From assembly GCF_902652985.1 (NCBI RefSeq), contig NC_047030.1, positions 21,824,001-21,888,000 on the forward strand: a stretch of DNA of 64,000 bases, given 5' to 3'. Below are positions 8,201 to 57,688 of the stretch, one piece after another. A model generated the notes under the pieces. That model saw only the letters and a program-made list of their open reading frames with translations. It ran no database searches and had not been told where the DNA came from. This DNA is from Pecten maximus (taxonomy: Eukaryota). Positions within the stretch are counted from its first letter, which is position 1. Each line of letters starts with the position of its first letter. The position numbers and the translations under genes were made by a program.

Positions 8201-11200
8201 AAAAAAAACCCAATAAAACATCTTCTGTTCCAGTTTTATTTTTTTTATTTTGCAGAGATGTCATTATTTGGAAGATATATCACTGCTTAGACACGTTTTG
8301 ATGAACATCCAGATGGAACTTCGGGCAACCATTATAAATCAATCCTATCATGAATTCCGTCTGAAGGTCGACCGGGCGATATCCAAACTCGGGCATGATT
8401 TTGAGAATCCATCATTTATTCTAGGAACACTTATCAAAACTCGAGTACGATTTGTTCATGTCCTGTCTGAGATAAGACTTGAGGCGGACACATGGCAAAA
8501 TTTTCCCGGTCTTTGTCCCAAAATATAAATTATTGACGCATTTCATATATGATAATCTGATAGAGGTGGCGCGCCAGAGTCATTTTACAACAGATGTGTC
8601 TATCAAAGGAATTGACAAAGCCTTAGAAGTGTTGACAATGCTTCAGGAAGTTGATATCTACAACAAGTTAGACTGTTCTATAGCGATCAGTAGCAACGAA
8701 ACCAGTCTTCGTAGCACTTACAATAACGCCATAATGCAGGGCATCAACAACATTAGGGCGCACAATATAGTGCTGGGTTTTCGTGGTGTGAAAGTTATAA
8801 CACCACAGGAATGGAATTTTCTGTTTTCACTCGGACAAAACACAAGAATATTTCCAAACAAGGACTTAGTCGACATGCACGAAAACAGTTCTCAAAATTT
8901 TATGACTTGTAAAGAAATAGAGTTTGAGCTGACAAGCATTATTAATAATGTTATGGCGTTGTCAGAAGGTTTGTTTTCTAGTCTGACCAACAGGATAAAC
9001 GAGGAACACAGCGACGCGATTAAGAAAATCGTAATATACACCATGTTATTCCTATCATGCGTTGTACTCTTCGGTATCGTTTGTGTCCTGCACCATTTCA
9101 CAGTGAACAGGTTATTGGCGCTGGGGGTCGTCGAGGACAGACTGAATAAACAATTGATGGAAGAGCAAGATAGAATATCTGTCATTTTGCTGGATGTGGT
9201 ACCCCCGGAGTACATACAATTGGTAATGAATGGAACCGATAAAGTATGCACAAGCGTAAAACGTAAAATACAAGACAAAAACAATAAAAACAGCAATAAA
9301 ATCAGTTTGAAAAGTTCTTTCGAATCTCTGGTCAAAACATTAAAAAAAAGCTCTGTGCAACCTACAATATCAACTATCTCAACCGAAGATGAAAAACACA
9401 CTAAACGGTACGACGGTGTTCCAATCAACGTACCCATTCTCAAGTGTGTCAAGCCTGATGTGACATTCGGGACGCTTGACAGTGCCACGCTGTTTATGTG
9501 TGACTTTATACATCTAAACGACCTGGTGGCCGTATACGAACCTGATCAACTAATCAATCTGGTCACATGTCTCATCCAGATCCTGGAGGAGCGGACCAAG
9601 CTTTACGATGTCCACGTTCTGTGTAAAAACATAAACATGTTCTCCGTCATTTCCGGTAAGTGACTGTATTACTTCCGGTACGTTATTGTGATCTATTTGT
9701 TTTTTCTTCCGGATACTATATAAAATTATAAGCACACACTTTATATATATGTTTTCAAATTCCAATAAATAATTATGTGATAACATGATTTGCGATTAGC
9801 CAATCAATTTGGATATTCCTATAAGTAATCTTTCTCTTGAATGTTTTTCGAGATGTACATGTATGCGACGCACCGGTGTTCAAGATGAAGCGCATGGTTT
9901 GATATGTATGTGGCGTGACAGTGTTCAAGATGTGTCTGGCGAACAGGTGTTCGAGACGAAGCGCATGGTTCAAGATGTATGTGGCGCACCAGTGTTTGAG
10001 GCTCGAGATGTGTGTGGCGCACCAGTGTTTGAGATATATGCCATATACTTGTGCTCGTGGACTGTGTTAGAGATAGGGAATACGTGATTATCATATATTT
10101 GCCTTTTCCTAATTAAAATCTTATTCCAGGAGCACAATCCCAGCATGCACTTCGACATGTATCCGAGATAGCTAATATGGCGCTGGACATCCGGGCTTCG
10201 TGCAGTGATCTGGAGATAGACGCACTTCCGGATTCAAAACTACGTATGCGTATAAGCATACACGTGTGTACGTTCAACCAAATATTTTTCTTATTGTGGT
10301 TGTTAACAATTTGCATATTAACGTCTATTAACAAGATAATGCAGAAAATACGTGATAGCCTTGTCGTCTTTTTGTGTAATTAGTATAAATATAGATAACA
10401 GATGTAGGAGGGTTGATAAAAGTTTTACCGAAACATAAAATACTGCTTTATGAAGTATTTTTATGTAGTCATTAAATCCAAGATGTCAATAGACTGCTGT
10501 TTCTATTTTTAGCCGATTGTTTGTATAAATTGTCGTCACATCCGGAGCCTCGTTTTCACATATACGGAGAACTTGTGGATATGACCAGACAACTACAGAA
10601 GAACTGCACCGGTAAGTATGATGAACATATATGTTTTTGATATAGATACGAGTGTTGATGAGTAATAACCATCAAGGAGGCAACCGGAATCTGACATTTT
10701 TGTATGTTAGTGTACTGTATTTAGTAACTTGTTTCGTCCTTCACCGGAAGTGTTTTTTATGTTTAGTTGGGAGGGATATAATAGGTAAACAGTACTCACG
10801 TGTTTGACGACTCTCTCAAATTATTTAACTATCACAAGCCAAGTTATTTCCCCCATACAAATAACATGTTAACGGGTATCACGAGGGGAGATAACTCTAG
10901 TACCTGTTAAATTTGCATCATCAAAGTAAGATAGTTATCGTGCATGCTTGCATAATCTCTAGGAAGATTACCTCAGCGACAACAAAATGATGAATCAAAG
11001 AAGATTATGTTGTCTCAGTTTACACTAAATCTACTGGACAGTTCCATGTTGGTGACATGACGTCCAAATGGATGCACAGTTTAAAGAAATCCAGGGCAAT
11101 AAACTAAATCTACTGGACAGTTCCATGTTGGTGACACGACGTCCAAATGGATGCACAGATCAAAGAAATCCAGGACAAATATTAATTTCTTTGATAACCA

Positions 11201-39458: not shown

Positions 39459-40077
39459 ATAACATGTTTACTTTCTATCTTTAGCTTTATTATTTTATAT
39501 ATCAGCTATGTAAGTAGTGATATGTTATGCTAAATTAATTTATAATTACTAGTTCTGTCATCTCATAGATAATTAAAATCCTGCTGCACTTTTAAATTCA
39601 ATTTAATTCTAATGAAGTCTAACTGCACTGAACCGATTGATATTTTTGTAAAAATGCATTTGATTTATTGTTGTTAATTAAATGAGTTTAATTCTATAAA
39701 ACAACGTTATATTATTGATACCTTTTCATCTCTTCATTTATTGAAAAAAATATAATGTAGTGTGCTTTAGTTCAGTACAGTTATATTTGGTCAAGTAGTA
39801 ATACCGACAGTACAGTCGATAATTAATTCGCCGAAGGCCTATTGTAATAAATTACGAAACATCTAAGGCGGTGTACAGATGGTATATATAAATAGTTAAA
39901 TAAAAGATCTAAAACAAAATTGCTGAGCAAGTTAAAACGATTTGATGACAGCACATGTTTTGTAGTAAATGTTTATATAATATATTGTATTTGATCGCTA
40001 AAATAAATATCTATTAAATGATAATTACATAATAGCATTTTCTGTTACATGTTTTTATTTGTTTCCAGGTTTCAACA

Positions 40078-42111
40078 ATGCCCAAGGCAATTACATGCTG
40101 CTTATGCAGGAAAAGATGTAAAATTAACTTGAGGCGGAAGGTAACAGGAGGACCATTCCTTAAGTATCTTAAGAAAGCTCTGTGTCGTGACATTTGTAAT
40201 GACGATTTCGTTTGTAGTTCTTGTACAGCAAAGTTTTATAAATATGGAAAATCTACACGAACAAGTAATCATCATGTCAGCAATGTTCCAACATCATTTA
40301 GAAGCCCTAAAACTGTGAATCTTCAAATACTGTCTACTCCTAGAACACACAAATATTGTATTGTATGCCAAAAATATGGAAACAACAGATGCCATTTAAT
40401 ATCTATACCTAAAAATGCAAGGACTCAAGCGTTTATTGAACATGGAATTTTTATAGACTCTACAAATAGATGCTGTGCCAGTCATATAAAAGACAAATAT
40501 TTTGATACTGTATCTCTACAACTAATCAGAAGTACTAAGACATCAGACTTATTTTCCAGATCAGACATCACTGATTTACTCCAGAATGTTAGATCATTAA
40601 TGAAAACATCGTTTCATCTCAATTTTGATATACCCTCTGTGTTGTCAGATGCTAATTATTCCGAACTTACCGGACTAAATAAAGATCAATTTGCAGATCT
40701 TGCATCATACCTGGTGTCCGTTCGAAATACTACAGTTAGATCAACGCGCACATGTCTTGGGGTATTGCTTGTTAAACTGAAAACTGGATTGTCCAATGAA
40801 CTGATATCAGTACTTTTCGGATTGAAGAAATCACAAGTTCAAAGGAGTGTACATAGTGCCAGATCTGCATTGATCGACAATTTCGTGAATAAAAATTTAG
40901 GTTTTAACCACATTACCCATGATAACTTCTGTAAAGACCACACGTCGAGTATTGCCAAGGAACTTTTCACTACCAACAATAATCAGGCAGTCGTCGTTCT
41001 AGATGGGACATATATATATATTCAAAAAAGTGGAAACTACAAGTTCCAGCGTAGGTCCTATAGTTTACATAAACATCGACCTCTAGTAAAGCCTATGGTA
41101 ATTGTGGGTACCGATGGTTATATACTTAGTGTTCTAGGACCATATCTAGCAGATGGCAAAAACAATGACGCCGCAATTACAAAACATATGTTTGCCAACA
41201 ACTTACAAAACATTAACCAGTGGTTCAATGATGGTGATATGTGTATCGTTGACCGGGGCTTTCGGGATTCTGTTTCTTTTCTTGAGGAGCACGGTTATCG
41301 CGTTGAAATGCCACCTTACTTGAAAAAGGGAGCAAAGCAACACACAACACAAGACGCCAACTTATCGCGGCTAGTAACAAAGGTTCGCTGGATTGTGGAG
41401 AGTGTTAATGGCCGTATCAAGCAATATCGAATGATGGACAAAGTGGTCCCAAATACATATATCCATTGTATTGGTGATTTTATACAAATTATTTGTAGCA
41501 TCTTGAACAAATACAAAAAGCCTCTTTTGCAACCCACCGCATCCTCTGAGGAAATGGCTCGCAAAATGCTGATCAAATCAAAGGAGGAGAATCGTCTTCT
41601 TACTGAGCTGGAAGAACGTGGTCTTCTAAAAAAAAGATCAACGTATGTCACCATTGACGCCTCTGGAGAAGAACTTGACGACTTCCCAATTCTAACAAGT
41701 GACGATCTCAGAGATATTACCTTTGGTATATATCAAATCAAGCAAGCTTGTTCATACTCGAGAGAGCACATGTCAGATGACGGTGACTATGAGTTACTTG
41801 TTTGTAAGGAGGACACTGGCTTGTTGAAAGTCAGGATCCAAAGTCGGCATTGTAGCGGTGTTTTGCATTCATTATGGATTCGATATGATGTGTTTACTAT
41901 ACTTGGATGGTACTGTACATGTAAGGTCGGGGCTAGAGTGGTGGGTTGTTGTGCCCATATTGCAAGTGTGTTGTGGTACCTAGGTATCATCCGCCACCAA
42001 GACACCATTGAACCTTCTACTAAAGTGTCATCTGTATTAGATGCTGCAGATATGCCGGAAACTGACACCTCAGATAATTCAGATGATAGCGAATCAGTAA
42101 CTGAGGAGTAA
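40078..42111 (+). CDS. DDE transposase (DDE_Tnp_4/IS5-Harbinger-like) with Cys-rich N-terminus, HTH region and C-terminal SWIM zinc finger
   Basis: Intact 677-aa ORF with LDGTY, KNNDA, VDRGF and RWIVES catalytic motifs, ELTGLNKDQF HTH region and CTCKVGARVVGCCAH SWIM motif; splice acceptor TTTCCAG just upstream of the ATG. Confidence 0.93.
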   Translation: MPKAITCCLCRKRCKINLRRKVTGGPFLKYLKKALCRDICNDDFVCSSCTAKFYKYGKSTRTSNHHVSNVPTSFRSPKTVNLQILSTPRTHKYCIVCQKYGNNRCHLISIPKNARTQAFIEHGIFIDSTNRCCASHIKDKYFDTVSLQLIRSTKTSDLFSRSDITDLLQNVRSLMKTSFHLNFDIPSVLSDANYSELTGLNKDQFADLASYLVSVRNTTVRSTRTCLGVLLVKLKTGLSNELISVLFGLKKSQVQRSVHSARSALIDNFVNKNLGFNHITHDNFCKDHTSSIAKELFTTNNNQAVVVLDGTYIYIQKSGNYKFQRRSYSLHKHRPLVKPMVIVGTDGYILSVLGPYLADGKNNDAAITKHMFANNLQNINQWFNDGDMCIVDRGFRDSVSFLEEHGYRVEMPPYLKKGAKQHTTQDANLSRLVTKVRWIVESVNGRIKQYRMMDKVVPNTYIHCIGDFIQIICSILNKYKKPLLQPTASSEEMARKMLIKSKEENRLLTELEERGLLKKRSTYVTIDASGEELDDFPILTSDDLRDITFGIYQIKQACSYSREHMSDDGDYELLVCKEDTGLLKVRIQSRHCSGVLHSLWIRYDVFTILGWYCTCKVGARVVGCCAHIASVLWYLGIIRHQDTIEPSTKVSSVLDAADMPETDTSDNSDDSESVTEE

Positions 42112-50166: not shown

Positions 50167-53100
50167 ATGCAACGTACGACGACACACCCGACTACAAGTA
50201 TGGCGCAAGGTAAGAATTGTTTATTTCATACAGATACATGTTTGTAGAAAGCAGTACTTTAATGTTCACTAGTTGTATATTTAAGTGGGCTTTTGTTCAC
50301 GTAGGCTTGTGTTCAAGTAGGTGTTGTTCAAGTAGGCGTGTGTTCAAGTCGGGGCTTTCATATATGAGAGTGTTCATGTATGGGTGCGTTCATTTAGACA
50401 TGTAATGTATGTTTCTTTTTCGTGGTGGTAAATACAATACAAACTTATATAGAAGTTTAGTTAAAGTCTTTGGTTTGATATTAATAAAAAAAAACAAGTA
50501 AATTTTCGAATTAAGAATAGAGCTATTATGTTTATTTAGATTGTCACATTGAAATTAAAAGATATGAAGTAAACACATCGTATCTAAGGATCAGATGAAT
50601 GGCAGATATTGTATGCTCTACCTGAATTTTTACTAAAAATCAAATATCTAAGTTTATTTTTCATACAATAAGACACATGTGAAACTCATCTTAAAATCTT
50701 TTTTATCAGTGGTGTAATTTATATAATTTTGCCGTATTTTATTAGAGATAAAACATTTCGGAAGGAATAACATTGTCCTTGTTGTGTTTGTGGCACTGTC
50801 TTCCAACAGACTAACGGTATACCAACGAAAACAATATGTTACTCTATTCTACTTCAAACTCACTTGTGTTTACTTCCACGCAAGGTTGAATTTACTTAGA
50901 ACATGCAGCAAAGACCGCGTCATGGGATTTATAGAGATGGTACGTAGTGCTCTCTTCACATTTTTTCAGTGTACAATTATTTATTGGCATGAAGTGTTTC
51001 ATGTGGTGCATAAATGATGGCATTTTATTAACGATTTGATGTGCACAAAATACAATTCATTTTTTGTTAGGGTATCTAGATAAGCCTGTTAGAGTCTTGT
51101 TTCATCCAATTTCCACAATAATAAGCTGGGTATCTAACATTCTTGATTTTAGTTATTGTGCTGACTTTTCACTAAACCAACCTTTTTAACACGTTTTTTC
51201 ATCTACATCCATCAGTTGTTTTACTTTACCGAGATCATTGATATTAAAAGTAAGTACTTACATTGGATCATTGAATGGTGTTGCAAAAATTAGCCTCACT
51301 CACTAACATCAGTAAATACAATATGCAGAATTATTTCCTCAAAACATTGCACATCGAGTTTCAAAATTGCTATATATTACTTTATATGTTATCGAGATAA
51401 ATTATATCTTTCTGGAAGATTAGTCACCATCAGATCACAAGGGAATAACTGGTCCAGACAATCGTCTGTGATTATAGAAAGAAGAATTATTATCACTTTT
51501 ACATTCATACCGCTTTTAGTAAAATTAGCACTGGTGGGTAGCTACTTGTCAGTAGTCATAACATAGTGGTCAAGTTTCAGATAAAACAAAATCTTAAGTG
51601 GAGATTAAAAAGCGATTCTTATCATGCTCTATTTTACACTGGTTCTCTGTCCTATAGGGACCACATCAATTCAATTATGATGTTCCTGACCAAATATTGT
51701 TAAAGTTCATCTATATAGGAGAAAATATTCAACCTCAAACACGAATAGATATTTACAAACTTGGACAACAAAATTCATGCAATATATACTAAGTTGGAAA
51801 TGTTGTTCATTAAAATCATCTATAATTTGCTTAAGATGCTAACAGTTTCTTTTATAAAGTTACTTTGTGGCAAGATGAAGCATGAAAGTCACGCAAATAA
51901 TCAAACCTGAAAATTGCCAAGCTGTTATGCTCACAAGTGTCTAGAACACACAATAGTAGCATTTTTTTTATGTCATATTTTTGTAACCATATTCACAGCC
52001 GCCATTTGCATTTCCAGGTCAAAACAAAATTAGTGTTTATACATTTTGTGCTTTAGACACTTGTGAGGAAAACGGCATTACTATTTTGTGCAATATTTAT
52101 GACACAAATGAGCTAACTATGTCCCCCTCGGATGTTTTGTTGATTTGTTTTTACAAGCTTAACAAATTGCATGTCAACAGCAACCCCAATGGTTTGCCAT
52201 GATGCATACTAATATTGATCAGGTTACTTCTGTTAAATTATAATCCATATAACCTACTTCAACGACATTTGATCTAAGGGCAGAAAGAATGAAGAAATAT
52301 TTAGATTGCATAATCCATGAGGTTTCTCTACTGTTTATGGTAAACACAGTTTTGAAATATCTCGTTTCACCGCTCAAATTAATATAAAAATAAATAATAA
52401 ATACGTTTGATGTATATAACCGAAGGAAATGTTTCTGTTTCAGGTCTTGTCCCTGAACCTAAATCCAAAGATGACGCCAGGGATTTCTGCCACATTGATA
52501 TTGGCGGGAATAAATATGAAATCAGCAAGAACGTGATGAAGTCGGTACCGGGCTCCCGCCTCTACAGGATAGCCAGGGATGCAAGATGTGGCAGTTTCTT
52601 CGAGCGTCCTCGGGGACCTTTCGAGTCTATTCTGGCTTATCACCAGACCGGCCAGTTGCATATGCCGGCAGATATCTGCCCTGGGGTCTTCAAACAGGAG
52701 ATGAAATTCTGGGGTGTTAACCCGGATGTAATGGAGAACTGTTGTTACCACCGTTACGTCACGTTCGCACGAGACCAGGAGATACTAACTGGTTTCTTAG
52801 AGCAAACAATACAGCGAGAAGAAAAACTGGTAGCATTGTTGTCGGATAGGTCATCACGTTTAGCACGAGTGAGAGCCCGGATATGGAGCGTTCTTGACAA
52901 TAAGGATGATTCTGTTGTAACCAAGGTAACAATGTTATTACAGCTGAGTATTGATGACGTACGTTTATTTAGCAGGATATGAATTCTGTTTGCAGACAAA
53001 TATAAATACGTAACGCGAATAACACAGTGCTAAGAAATAATGATAATCAATACCACATTAGAACACTTGTTAATTATCAAAGAAATAACATTTCCTTTCT

Positions 53101-56100
53101 TTTGATGGAAATCCCAAACGTTTACATCATTACAAATGGCCTTGTACATTTCTTTGAAGGACATTTTGATTTAGAATATAATTATATTAATTACTATTTA
53201 ATAACAAAATTGATAAGAGAAAACAAATCTTAATAATGAATACAAAAGGGGGGGGGGGGGGGCACAAACAAGAGCAATTGTATAAGAAAATAGACAAACT
53301 ATGACCAGAGTACGACATAGAAGACTGAGCGACAACAAAGATAGCCGCTGTGTGATATCAAGTTCTGATAATGTCACGTTCCCAAATTAAGAGCCATGAG
53401 AGTGACAACCTATCTACCGGGTTAGTTCATGTGTATAAAATTCGCCGACGTTATCGCACAATATTTATATACAGTTATGGCACTCTGTTTCTATCGATAT
53501 GTTGATTTATGGAACGAAGACAACCAATATTGACCGAGACCGGAGGCCGAGGTTTGTATTAGTTATCTGAGATCAATAAATAATCATATCAATATAAATA
53601 AAGTGCCATAACTGTTTTACTACTTTCCGATATCAAAACCAGTCACAGAATGCTATGGTATGATCCCATATCATTTAAACTGCATCTTATCCCAGACATC
53701 TATCACGGGAATCAGGAACAAGTTCAGCCTGTATAAGACATCTATCACGGGAATCAGGAACAAGTTCAGCCTGCATTAGACATCTAATACGGGAATCAGT
53801 TCTTCTGTTGCTCTCTCCTCGACATGTCCTAGGTATGAGGTCCGCTAGACACCCTTCTTAACAAGACATTAGGTATGAGGTCCGCTAGACACCCGTCCTA
53901 ACAAGACATTAGGTATGAGGTCCGCTAGACACCCGTCCTAACAAGACATTAGGTATGAGGTCCGCTAGACACCCGTCCTAACAAGACATTAGGTATGAGG
54001 TCCGCTAGACACCCGTCCTAACAAGACATTAGGTATGAGGTCCGCTAGGCACCCGTCCTAACAAGACATTAGGTATGAGGTCCGCTAGACACCCGTCCTA
54101 ACAAGACATTAGGTATGAGGTCCACTAGACACCCGTCCTAACAAGACATTAGGTATGAGGTCCGCTAGACACCCGTCCTAACAAGACATTAGGTATGAGG
54201 TCCGCTAGACACCCGTCCTAACAAGACATTAGGTATGAGGTCCGCTAGACACCCGTCCTAACAAGACATTAGGTATGAGGTCCGCTAGACACCCGTCCTA
54301 ACAAGACATTAGGTATGAGGTTTGCTAGACACCCGTCCTAACAAGACATTAGGTATGAGGTCCGTTAGACACCCGTCCTAACAAGACATTAGGTATGAGG
54401 TTTGCTAGACACCCGTCCTAACAAGACATTAGGTATGAGGTTTGCTAGACACCCGTCCTAACAAGACATTAGGTATGAGGTCCGCTAGACACCCGTCCTA
54501 ACAAGACATTAGGTATGAGGTCCGCTAGACACCCGTCCTAACAAGACATTAGGTATGAGGTTTGCTAGACACCGGTTCTAACAAGACATTATCTGTTGGT
54601 GTCCGCTAGACACCGGTTCTAATAAGACATTATCTGTTGGTGTCCGCTAGACACCGGTTCTAACAAGACATTATATGTTGGTGCCCGCTGGACACCGGCT
54701 CTAATAAGACATTATCTGTTGGTGTCCGCTGGACACCGGTTCTAACAAGACATTAGCTGGTGGGGTCCGCTAAGCACCCATCCTAACTTGACTCTAGCAG
54801 TTTGTGTCCCCAAACCACCGTCCTAACATAACTCATAATAATTGTTAATATTCCCTAGATAACTTGACTTCAGCTGTTGCTGTCCCAAGGAAACCCATCC
54901 TAAAATGACTCTAGCGGTTGATGTCCCCTAGTCACCCGTCCTTACATAACTCAATCTGCTATTGCTTCCTAGACACCCGTCCCAACATGACTCTAGCGGT
55001 TAGTGTCCCCCAAACATCTACCCTAAATTGCCTCCACTGTTAGTGGCTCTACACAACTGTCCTAACATGGCACTACTGTTAGTGTCCCCTAGACATCTGT
55101 CCTAAAAGAATCTACTGTAAATGTTCCCTCGACAATCGTCCTAAAATGACTCTACTGTTAGCGTCCCCCAGACACCTGTTCTAACTTGACTCTACTGTTA
55201 ATGTCCCCTAGACATTCGTCATAATCTTACTAATAGTTGATGTCCACTAGACACCCGTTCCATCATAACTTTAGCTGTTGGTGTCCCTCGAGACACCCGT
55301 CCTCGTATAACCGTAGCTGTCGTTGTACTCAAGCTGTTTGTGTGTCCCTAGGAACCCGTTTTAGGTGACCTGTGATCTGTTGTTGCTAGGGCGTAAAGAT
55401 GAAACAAATACGACTCAGTTTAAGCTTTGCATTACATATTTCTCGTTATGGATTTTATGAATATGCATTGTTGTACGGTATTTAGATTATTGTCATAAAG
55501 AAAACAAGTGTTATTTCATGGAATGAAGACTAGTTTATGTGATGTTCTCCTCAGTCTGAGTAAATCTGTAAATTTTCAGATCTACTTCGGCGTGGCCACT
55601 GTCTTTATACTGATTGCCATCTTCGCCACTGCTCTGGGGACATTGACCCACCACGAAACTAATGTCACTGTAGAAAACGCAGAGGGTAATGACAACAGCT
55701 CCATTGGACTTCATGGGGATGTCTTGGAAATGAATACACCAAGAAACTTTGCATTTAATCGCAGAGTTCGGCGAGATGAAATCTTCTCCAGTATTGAGTT
55801 AGAAAACACGATTATGTCCGAGCAAGAAGACGAGGATGGCTCCATTAGTCACCAATTCCAGATGACCGAAATATCCGGTGATGTCTTGGCGAGAATGTCG
55901 TATGATCAAGCTAATGAGAAACTGGCACAGAGAAATCATGACCAGGAATACCATAATGAGGTATACAAAGATACGAGTCGGCTTCCTTTATCAGATGGTG
56001 ACGTGTCTAGTAGAAACGGGCATACTTCTCAAGGTAATGAAGGTCAACATCAAAAATGGGACATGAAAGAGCATCAAAAAGGTGATATTGAACAGCATCA

Positions 56101-57688
56101 ACAGGACAACAACCAACAGCATAAACAGGGGGACATCGAACAGCATCAAAAAGGTAAAATTGAGCAGCATCAAAGGATCAACAATAAACAACATCAACAA
56201 GGCTATTCCGAAGAGCAACCAACTTATACAAATGAAAAGCAAAGAAATGCCGGAGAGTACCGAATGGAAACATCTGCACAGCACAAAGAAGAGAATACCG
56301 AGAAGCGTGTACAATGGAACGCCGCTGGACAAAAACAACAAGAAGGTTCTGAAAAGTACCAACGCGGTAACCTCAAACAGAACCAGCATTATATTGTAGA
56401 TGACGTCGAATCTGAAAGGCAAATCGAGTTATCAAGCAATGTTATGGAAAGAAATGAGTTTGATATTTCTGATGACAACGATATTGACAGTAGTGACAAA
56501 CTTTCAACCGATGCTCCAAGTAAGCTGATTTCAGGAACTGGAGATGGGAAATCACAGGACCGACATCATATCCGTATACCACGGAGTCTTGATGTAAGAA
56601 ATGTCTCTCGAAATGTTAAGAATGCCACAGAATTTGAAAACGCCACGGAAGACATTAGTTATAGCATCTCTACAAATTCAACAAATGTCACAGATTTTGT
56701 GGAAATGGCTACACAGGGTACTATAAAGTTAACGCCCAACAGAGTGGATTTACCAAGTGTTTCGTCGAATGACAACAGTACCCCTTCAAATGACTCTGGT
56801 GTCAACATCTCACAACTGACCCAATCTGTGGCCGCCAACATCTTGGCATTCGAAATAAACGATGAAACAGGTATTGCAGCGAACAAGTCAAACATCGACA
56901 TAGGTGATCTTGGAAATACCATTCTAAGAAACCAGGACACAATGAAAAACATCATAGAGAATATCCTTCCAAATCCTCCGGCATCAAAGATCCTCACCAT
57001 GGAGACTGCTGTGAACGAAGAGCATTTTACTTATATGTATATAGAATATGCTACAAACATATTCTTCACTTGTGAACTGTTTCTGCGTCTCGTTTTCTGT
57101 CCTCGTGCGATAAAATACGTTTTTTCATTTCAAAATGTAATCGACATACTTGTTTTAGCTGCAGTTTATGCCAGGAGTGTAATTTCCTTAATCGAGGAAT
57201 ATCAGAGCGATATCGACATTCTTTTATATCTACAGATGTTGAGAGTTCTCCGTCTCCGTAGACTATTGGACAACGTGACTGCATACAAGGTACTCTGTTA
57301 TTCAATGAAGGTTGGAAAAAATGACGTATTTCTTATTTTGCTATATGTCTTCTTTGGGGTACTGTTCTTTTCCAATTTTATCTATTTTTTTGAACGAAGC
57401 GAAGATTTCCCCAGTATTCCCGAAGCTTGGTGGTGGAGCATGGTTACCATAACAACAGTAGGATACGGAGACATGGTACCTAAAACATTCATTGGTAAGC
57501 TGATCGGATCAGTGTGTGCTCTATCCGGGGTGTTCATGTTCTCTCTGATAATACCTATATTTGTGAATACCTTCTTGTCTGTTTATCAATACGCCGAGGT
57601 ACGTAATCGGAATGATGACATATCTCAAAACAACAATACTGCAATCCAGAAACAGAAGATGGAAAAAGTCAAAGAACAGAGTGTTTAA
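50167..57688 (+). CDS. Voltage-gated potassium channel, Shaw(Kv3)-like but atypical
   Basis: Exons 50167-50209 (tentative), 52444-52925 (T1/BTB domain with exact HX5CX20CC zinc motif) and 55580-57688 (S1, long loop, S2 IEYATNIFFTCELFLRLVFCP, S3 NVIDILV, S4 LRVLRLRRL, pore SIPEAWWWSMVTITTVGYGDMVPKT, S6). Splice phases are compatible. Confidence 0.92.
53830..55360. repeat. 40-bp tandem repeat (AGGTATGAGGTCCGCTAGACACCCGTCCTAACAAGACATT) in Kv intron 2; homogeneous to ~54590, then progressively diverged
   Basis: Direct periodicity of 40. Confidence 0.95.

Follow-up and report, generated by a model that had tools for sequence, protein, structure and literature searches.

Voltage-gated potassium (Kv) channels rank among the best-studied proteins. 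In Kv1.5, the N-terminus plus the first transmembrane segment (S1) reportedly co-assemble with the remainder of the channel despite an absent S1-S2 link, to judge by the title of a 2018 paper from Lamothe et al. (PMID 30121572); this is said to be an experimental split, not native maturation, and it makes a split Kv channel plausible. In the trans-Golgi network furin cleaves its substrates behind R-X-K/R-R, and two furin cuts remove an inhibitory piece from ENaC alpha, according to the available portions of PMC10155048 and PMC3083689. Here we analyse a Kv gene of the scallop Pecten maximus, located in a 64,000-nucleotide stretch of NCBI RefSeq contig NC_047030.1 (assembly GCF_902652985.1, positions 21,824,001 to 21,888,000 of the forward strand; hereafter the window). 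We estimate a probability of roughly 0.52 that the product, a probably Shaw-derived subunit, is cut in its outer loop within the secretory pathway by a convertase of the furin type, leaving a mature voltage sensor that is split between S1 and S2.

With Shaw/Kv3 channels (Aplysia Kv3.1 T1, PDB 3KVT; human Kv3.1) the Pecten subunit shares a Shaw-type T1, a six-transmembrane core, the GYG filter and a short S4 charge set, whereas its S1-S2 loop measures 460 amino acids (aa) against 32 aa in the Shaw channel of the same genome, the PVPVIV gate of S6 is replaced by IIPIFV and the final RH of S4 is lost. The altered gate shares the loss of a hinge proline and an inserted aromatic residue with regulatory Kv subunits (vertebrate Kv5/6/8/9 and cnidarian KvR), but the Pecten subunit belongs to an independent molluscan/spiralian lineage, and no giant or cleavable loop appears in the available portions of PMC6279357 and PMC9989356. 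ENaC alpha is similar in outline, with two furin sites around an extracellular piece whose release would alter function. However, ENaC alpha has a trimeric two-transmembrane fold and releases a small sequence-specific peptide (PMC10155048, available portion), whereas the Pecten protein has a Kv fold and not an ENaC/DEG fold, its 270-aa piece is unconserved and the cut would fall inside the voltage sensor; the likeness is mechanistic only. The large extracellular polycystin-mucolipin domain of TRPML/TRPP channels is folded and conserved (PMC7054860, available portion), unlike the Pecten loop, which is unconserved, matches no Pfam family and is disordered in a model with a shallow loop alignment. 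Our literature coverage, mostly titles and the beginnings of abstracts with few subscription papers, yielded nothing on convertase cleavage of Kv channels or on the loops of this clade, nor did the available portions of PMC12184066, PMC9989356, PMC11339754, PMC7054860, PMC5972805 and PMC7866247. A familiar type of channel would here be joined to a familiar type of processing, and we found no description of the two together.

A probably Shaw-derived Kv subunit with a very long S1-S2 loop

The gene consists of two exons, the first encoding T1 and the second everything from S1 to the stop codon. Its features are listed below in window coordinates, with ↓ marking a predicted cut.

52410 to 52925, plus strand: exon for the T1 (BTB) assembly domain and the T1-S1 linker (Pfam BTB_2, E 6e-15; Shaw T1 3KVT, E 3e-18)
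52926 to 55579, plus strand: phase-0 GT-AG intron, much of it occupied by a 40-base-pair (bp) tandem repeat (53830 to 55214)
55580 to 57688, plus strand: single exon for S1, loop, S2-S6 and C-tail, 702 aa (Pfam Ion_trans, E 8e-26)
55580 to 55648, plus strand: S1 helix (hydropathy; S1 profile; model helix 2-21 with a predicted local distance difference test score, pLDDT, of about 90)
55649 to 57028, plus strand: extracellular S1-S2 loop, 460 aa, without cysteine, mostly disordered (S1/S2 profile; model)
55760 to 55774, plus strand: site 1, RRVRR↓DE, full R-X-K/R-R furin consensus, 42 residues past S1 (counterpart RRKR↓SE in the relative P0001)
55775 to 56584, plus strand: predicted excised spacer, 270 aa, 31.4 kDa, isoelectric point 5.0, acidic, no N-glycan sequon; one predicted helix (55877 to 55972)
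56048 to 56215, plus strand: in-frame 8-aa (24-bp) His/Gln repeat
56573 to 56584, plus strand: site 2, RIPR↓SL, minimal R-X-X-R only (counterpart RMRR↓SV in P0001)
56585 to 57028, plus strand: stalk predicted to remain on S2, 148 aa, nine N-glycan sequons, short membrane-adjoining helices (27% identity to the P0001 stalk, E 7e-11)
57029 to 57590, plus strand: S2-S6, with the Shaw-type short S4 charge set plus an extra Arg at 57257, an intact TVGYGD filter (57455 to 57472) and the S6 gate IIPIFV (57548 to 57565)

A GT donor closes the T1 exon and an AG acceptor precedes 55580. The paralogue P0002 (locus L002) has its intron at the identical codon, and its N-terminus is 50% identical to the Pecten T1 exon, with the same end codon. 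The 5′ end of this exon is uncertain: it may lie at the ATG at 52410, or an acceptor AG at 52442-52443 may join it to an upstream exon. By eye, an out-of-frame ATG at 52429 resembles the paralogue start context with two extra bases, and the bases from 52429 to 52445 can also be read as a splice acceptor.

The sequence-only reading from which this work started had placed an insert of about 460 aa between S1 and S2 in one exon, and we find the same: 55580-57688 is one open frame, the S1/S2 profile gives 460 aa, and across the loop the coding frame is free of stops, whereas each of the five other frames has 16-47. That the loop might be spliced out, which the same reading had allowed for, is without support, as the loop is open only in the coding frame and a simple scan detected neither a donor-like site near S1 nor an acceptor-like one near S2. 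The length is extreme but not unique, since other scallop paralogues have loops of 113-262 aa and two ark-clam-type proteins have 475-482 aa. The loop DNA is single copy in the Pecten maximus genome, and a homologue search with the whole exon at E 0.001, in which the search words were mostly loop-derived, gave no match among 7992 candidates. Because the loop has no Pfam family, one genomic copy and only weak protein matches of low complexity (E 0.002-0.008), its capture from the gene of a secreted pro-protein is unsupported.

The protein has the features of a Shaker-family Kv channel, namely T1 plus S1-S6 (Pfam BTB_2, Ion_trans and the structural model) and the TVGYGD filter. Against solved structures its T1 matches Shaw best (E 3e-18), followed by Kv2 (4e-13), Kv4 (3e-10) and Kv1 (3e-5), and the T1 exon carries H-x5-C-x20-CC, which we take to be the T1 zinc motif. 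The core score gives no preference for Kv3, and in the tree the gene falls within a separate, well-supported clade of divergent subunits, with Shaw among the outgroup rows. The C-terminal residue (57677-57685 region) is Val, as in P0001, P0002, P0003 and P0019 despite their divergent tails; it is a possible PDZ or export signal.

The S6 gate carries atypical substitutions of the kind expected of a regulatory subunit, and the replacement of PVPVIV by IIPIFV marks the protein as likely regulatory; gate changes are given for 42 of 43 regulatory subunits in the available portion of Pisupati et al. (PMC6279357). The Pecten maximus genome contains 45-47 Kv-like matches. In most of these a single exon spans S1-S6, and tandem groups lie on C2, C4, C5, C8 and C17; three Kv-like copies, L044-L046 on C7 and C18, are partial or stop-containing. 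Many of the matches have altered gates, and their loops range from about 10 to 262 aa. On this basis, and from the trees, the gene belongs to an expansion in molluscs of divergent subunits that are Shaw-like and probably regulatory. That Kv3 was duplicated separately in lophotrochozoans is mentioned without detail in the available part of a 2025 preprint (10.1101/2025.09.21.677649), whose supplements may include some genes of this clade. The sequence-only reading had recognized a Kv channel correctly and had missed its probable Shaw origin, the regulatory-type gate, the molluscan expansion and the signs of relaxed selection described below.

Paired convertase motifs recur in long loops of related channels

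Furin-type sites had been proposed on both sides of a segment of about 270 aa. The segment is exactly 270 aa long, and site 1 is a full consensus, whereas site 2 is only a minimal one. Many sequons do follow it, as had been noted: among the 11 in the loop, two precede site 1, none lies between the sites and nine lie beyond site 2. The repeat unit within the spacer is 8 aa and not about 9, and the array is made up of 24 bp x 5.3 and 72 bp x 2. When the Pecten loop is shuffled, at least one R-X-K/R-R arises with P = 0.10, three R-X-X-R with P = 0.097 and 11 sequons with P = 0.09. The motifs in this protein are real, yet non-significant unless relatives are considered.

The probable orthologue P0001, a Logan protein that is the reciprocal best match of the Pecten gene with 80% core identity, has the same layout in a 415-aa loop: RRKR↓SE and RMRR↓SV enclose none of its 15 sequons, and 13 come after them. 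Its distal stalk can be aligned with that of Pecten, but its spacer cannot (best pairwise E 0.016). In more distant relatives the layout is repeated, and paired sites are present in Physella (VRKR↓SA, RQKR↓DI) and in the sacoglossans Elysia (VGKR↓SV, RHRR↓SA) and Plakobranchus (VGKR↓SV, RHKR↓AP), in which both sites are in register at a loop identity of 32%. Nucella has IRKR↓SV, RPKR↓YP and RVRR↓AA, Mya has RKKR↓FE and RQIR↓AT, and the ENA protein P0114 has RKRR↓DV and RGRR↓ST; Pinctada, the nemertean Lineus and P0151 have one site each.

For statistics, S1 and S2 were located in 190 of 234 channel domains and 155 non-redundant rows were counted, after dropping one repeat artefact, rows with negative S1 scores (among them P0058, with a 295-aa loop and no full site) and cores more than 90% alike. 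R-X-K/R-R occurs 15 times in the 21 loops of at least 200 aa, where 1.63 are expected, and none of 500 shuffles scored as high. Among the 33 loops of 100-199 aa the excess falls to 4 against 1.1 (P 0.03), and it vanishes in 101 loops under 100 aa (1 against 1.0), while 128 cytosolic C-tails have 10 against 6.4 (P 0.10). With one row per lineage, the site is found in 7/12 against 1.0 expected (P 2e-6). The P1′ residue is S, D or A, a set chosen post hoc, in 13/20 loop sites and in 1/10 C-tail sites. Across nine paired-site proteins, the pairs being picked by eye, the spacer makes up 51% of the length but holds 14 of the 62 sequons (P 3e-6). On both trees, one from FastTree and one from a single IQ-TREE search, the snail, clam and scallop carriers lie scattered, with 13 changes for 15 rows (at least 10 forced) and 11 for 14 (at least 6 forced), so the sites were gained or lost several times; the trees do not settle how often. 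Both the paired layout in the probable orthologue and the enrichment in long loops of the clade answer favorably the check on RxxR conservation that the sequence-only reading had proposed.

Elsewhere in the family, the scallop paralogue L013 has a 113-aa loop with a single full site, REKR↓DS. A tandem cluster of four paralogues (L003-L006, C5:43.41-43.44 Mb), with orthologues in Argopecten and Mizuhopecten, has loops of 233-262 aa that each contain five cysteines and lack a full furin site. A full furin site is likewise missing from the loops of 475-482 aa in P0009 (Tegillarca granosa KAJ8305139.1) and P0013, which have 28 cysteines each, and these loops are candidates for a folded, disulfide-bonded ectodomain on a Kv channel.

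Proposed maturation of the channel

An AlphaFold2 model, built from a 94-row alignment that is shallow over the loop, has a confident channel core and pLDDT below 50 for most of the loop, with a spacer helix at residues 100-131 and short helices near S2. Cleavage sites in a loop predicted to be disordered would be accessible, and their position between S1 and S2, the flanking sequons and the low pLDDT together predict a lumenal, solvent-accessible setting. Seven convertase P-domain matches are found in the genome. As the paired motif layout recurs in snail and clam relatives, it is likely that such channels start out as precursors and are then cut within the voltage sensor.

In such a pathway the subunit would be expressed and, because its S6 gate is altered, would co-assemble with a conventional Shaw subunit by way of its Shaw-type T1. 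The loop would face the Golgi lumen and be cut, likely at RRVRR↓DE and less surely at RIPR↓SL. Helix packing and the T1 tetramer would hold the T1-S1 piece (about 27 kDa) to S2-S6 (about 42 kDa plus glycan), and removal of the acidic 270-aa spacer (about 31 kDa) would mature the channel by allowing export or by relieving a steric block. S1 would keep a stub of 42 aa, and S2 a glycosylated stalk of 148 aa. Since the spacer is unconserved, we read it as disposable, and see in the glycosylated stalk what the channel retains; that the spacer acts as a hormone or a sequence-specific signal is improbable.

Contrary evidence and alternative explanations

Several observations weigh against cleavage. 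Site 2 has no basic P2 residue and RIPR does not fit R-X-K/R-R. The full site is absent from 10/21 long loops (present in 11/21), among them the cysteine-containing scallop and ark-clam loops. A mild motif excess is also seen in 59 cytosolic N-termini (15 against 7.5, P 0.007), where 8 of the 15 are one conserved T1 motif followed by Pro. Physella opposes the sequon trend with 9/12 within its spacer, the node joining the Pecten gene and P0001 is without support in the tree, and most relatives are gene predictions.

The Pecten copy itself adds to these points. A look-up of sequencing runs containing the gene gave no RNA run. The four runs examined yielded no read that was spliced or clearly transcribed, and nothing in them joins the two sides of the intron; contigs of runs X1, X2 and X4 cover the intron as well as the exon and read straight through both splice sites, as DNA or unspliced RNA would, and run X3 gave one 174-base piece of the pore region. 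Database protein searches returned no sequence identical to the Pecten gene, and no orthologue turned up from the three annotated scallop genomes, those of Argopecten, Mizuhopecten and Ylistrum. A protein atlas had no result for the Pecten protein or P0001. Compared with P0001, the Pecten core has 20 changes against 3 (P 0.0005) and 19 against 4 (P 0.003) with two outgroups, and 11 against 8 with a third. These changes include Leu to Arg in S4, for which contigs of run X1 have the same base, and Met to Ile before the filter. The Pecten copy may thus be under relaxed selection or decaying, even if the family feature is real.

The best-surviving alternative, still unlikely in our view, is that the loop is cut as mere trimming: long disordered outer loops grown by repeats would be tolerated only where a convertase takes them off, and the channel would behave like a short-loop paralogue. 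This would account for sites that are scattered on the tree and track loop length, for a freely drifting spacer with a young 24-bp repeat, and for the lack of any site in the closest paralogues (113-133 aa loops). However, siteless long loops persist in the scallop C5 cluster, the ark clam and Mactra, so trimming is not obligatory, and the recurrence of the paired layout with a glycan stalk also speaks against it.

Somewhat less probable again is that the family feature is real but that the Pecten copy is decaying or silent, its motifs being relics. Each exon has an open frame (172 and 702 codons) and the splice sites are canonical, the filter and T1 zinc motif are intact, repeat units are multiples of three and the core changes are mostly conservative; set against this are the faster core evolution, the odd S4 Arg, the weakened site 2, the missing spliced read and the out-of-frame ATG at 52429.

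We regard it as improbable that the loop remains intact as a bulky shield or tether, glycosylated and lying over the voltage sensor, with motifs arising by chance. The Pecten motifs alone are indeed within chance and nearly half of the long loops have no full site, but the nine-fold enrichment is restricted to long loops on the extracellular side, and the P1′ residues there are furin-like, which argues otherwise.

A secreted signal made from the freed 270-aa piece is very improbable. Clean paired sites, the absence of glycan, one confident helix and the loop identity between the two sacoglossans would suit such a product, but the spacer fails to align with that of the orthologue, spacer lengths vary from 53 to 270 aa, and neither a Pfam family nor repeated amidation signals are found. 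Of the original proposal of a convertase-matured channel or one that releases a secreted fragment, the first part gains from sites that recur and are enriched in the long loops of relatives, while the second is unsupported. A neuropeptide precursor was considered separately and rejected, as there is one inner dibasic pair and no repeated units with amidation signals.

An unannotated intron, or an artefact of the gene model, has next to no probability as an explanation of the loop: RNA confirmation is absent, but the loop is open only in the coding frame without splice-like sites near S1 or S2 in the simple scan, and in a second organism the loop is likewise in frame and its stalk can be aligned.

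Other features of the window

At 40036-42111 on the plus strand lies an open 691-aa frame with DDE_Tnp_4 (E 3e-18) and HTH_Tnp_4, which we take to be a Harbinger/PIF-type transposase. A 395-aa frame at 8476-9663 (plus strand) has one hydrophobic stretch; by eye its end looks like the beginning of a nucleotide cyclase domain, and no Pfam match is significant. Many further minisatellites occur across the 64-kb window.

Implications for molluscan Kv channels

Cleavage between S1 and S2 by a furin-type convertase, if true, would add proteolysis to the means of controlling Kv function, would provide biophysics with natural split voltage sensors, and would give a testable function to a large, uncharacterized Shaw-like expansion in molluscs. 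More broadly, and tentatively, as we hold it less likely than the cleavage of the Pecten subunit itself, molluscs may repeatedly have evolved protease-matured Kv subunits in which a convertase excises an S1-S2 spacer. Such subunits would have native split voltage sensors, would place a protease switch on Shaw currents, and would represent the first ENaC-like activation step among Kv channels.

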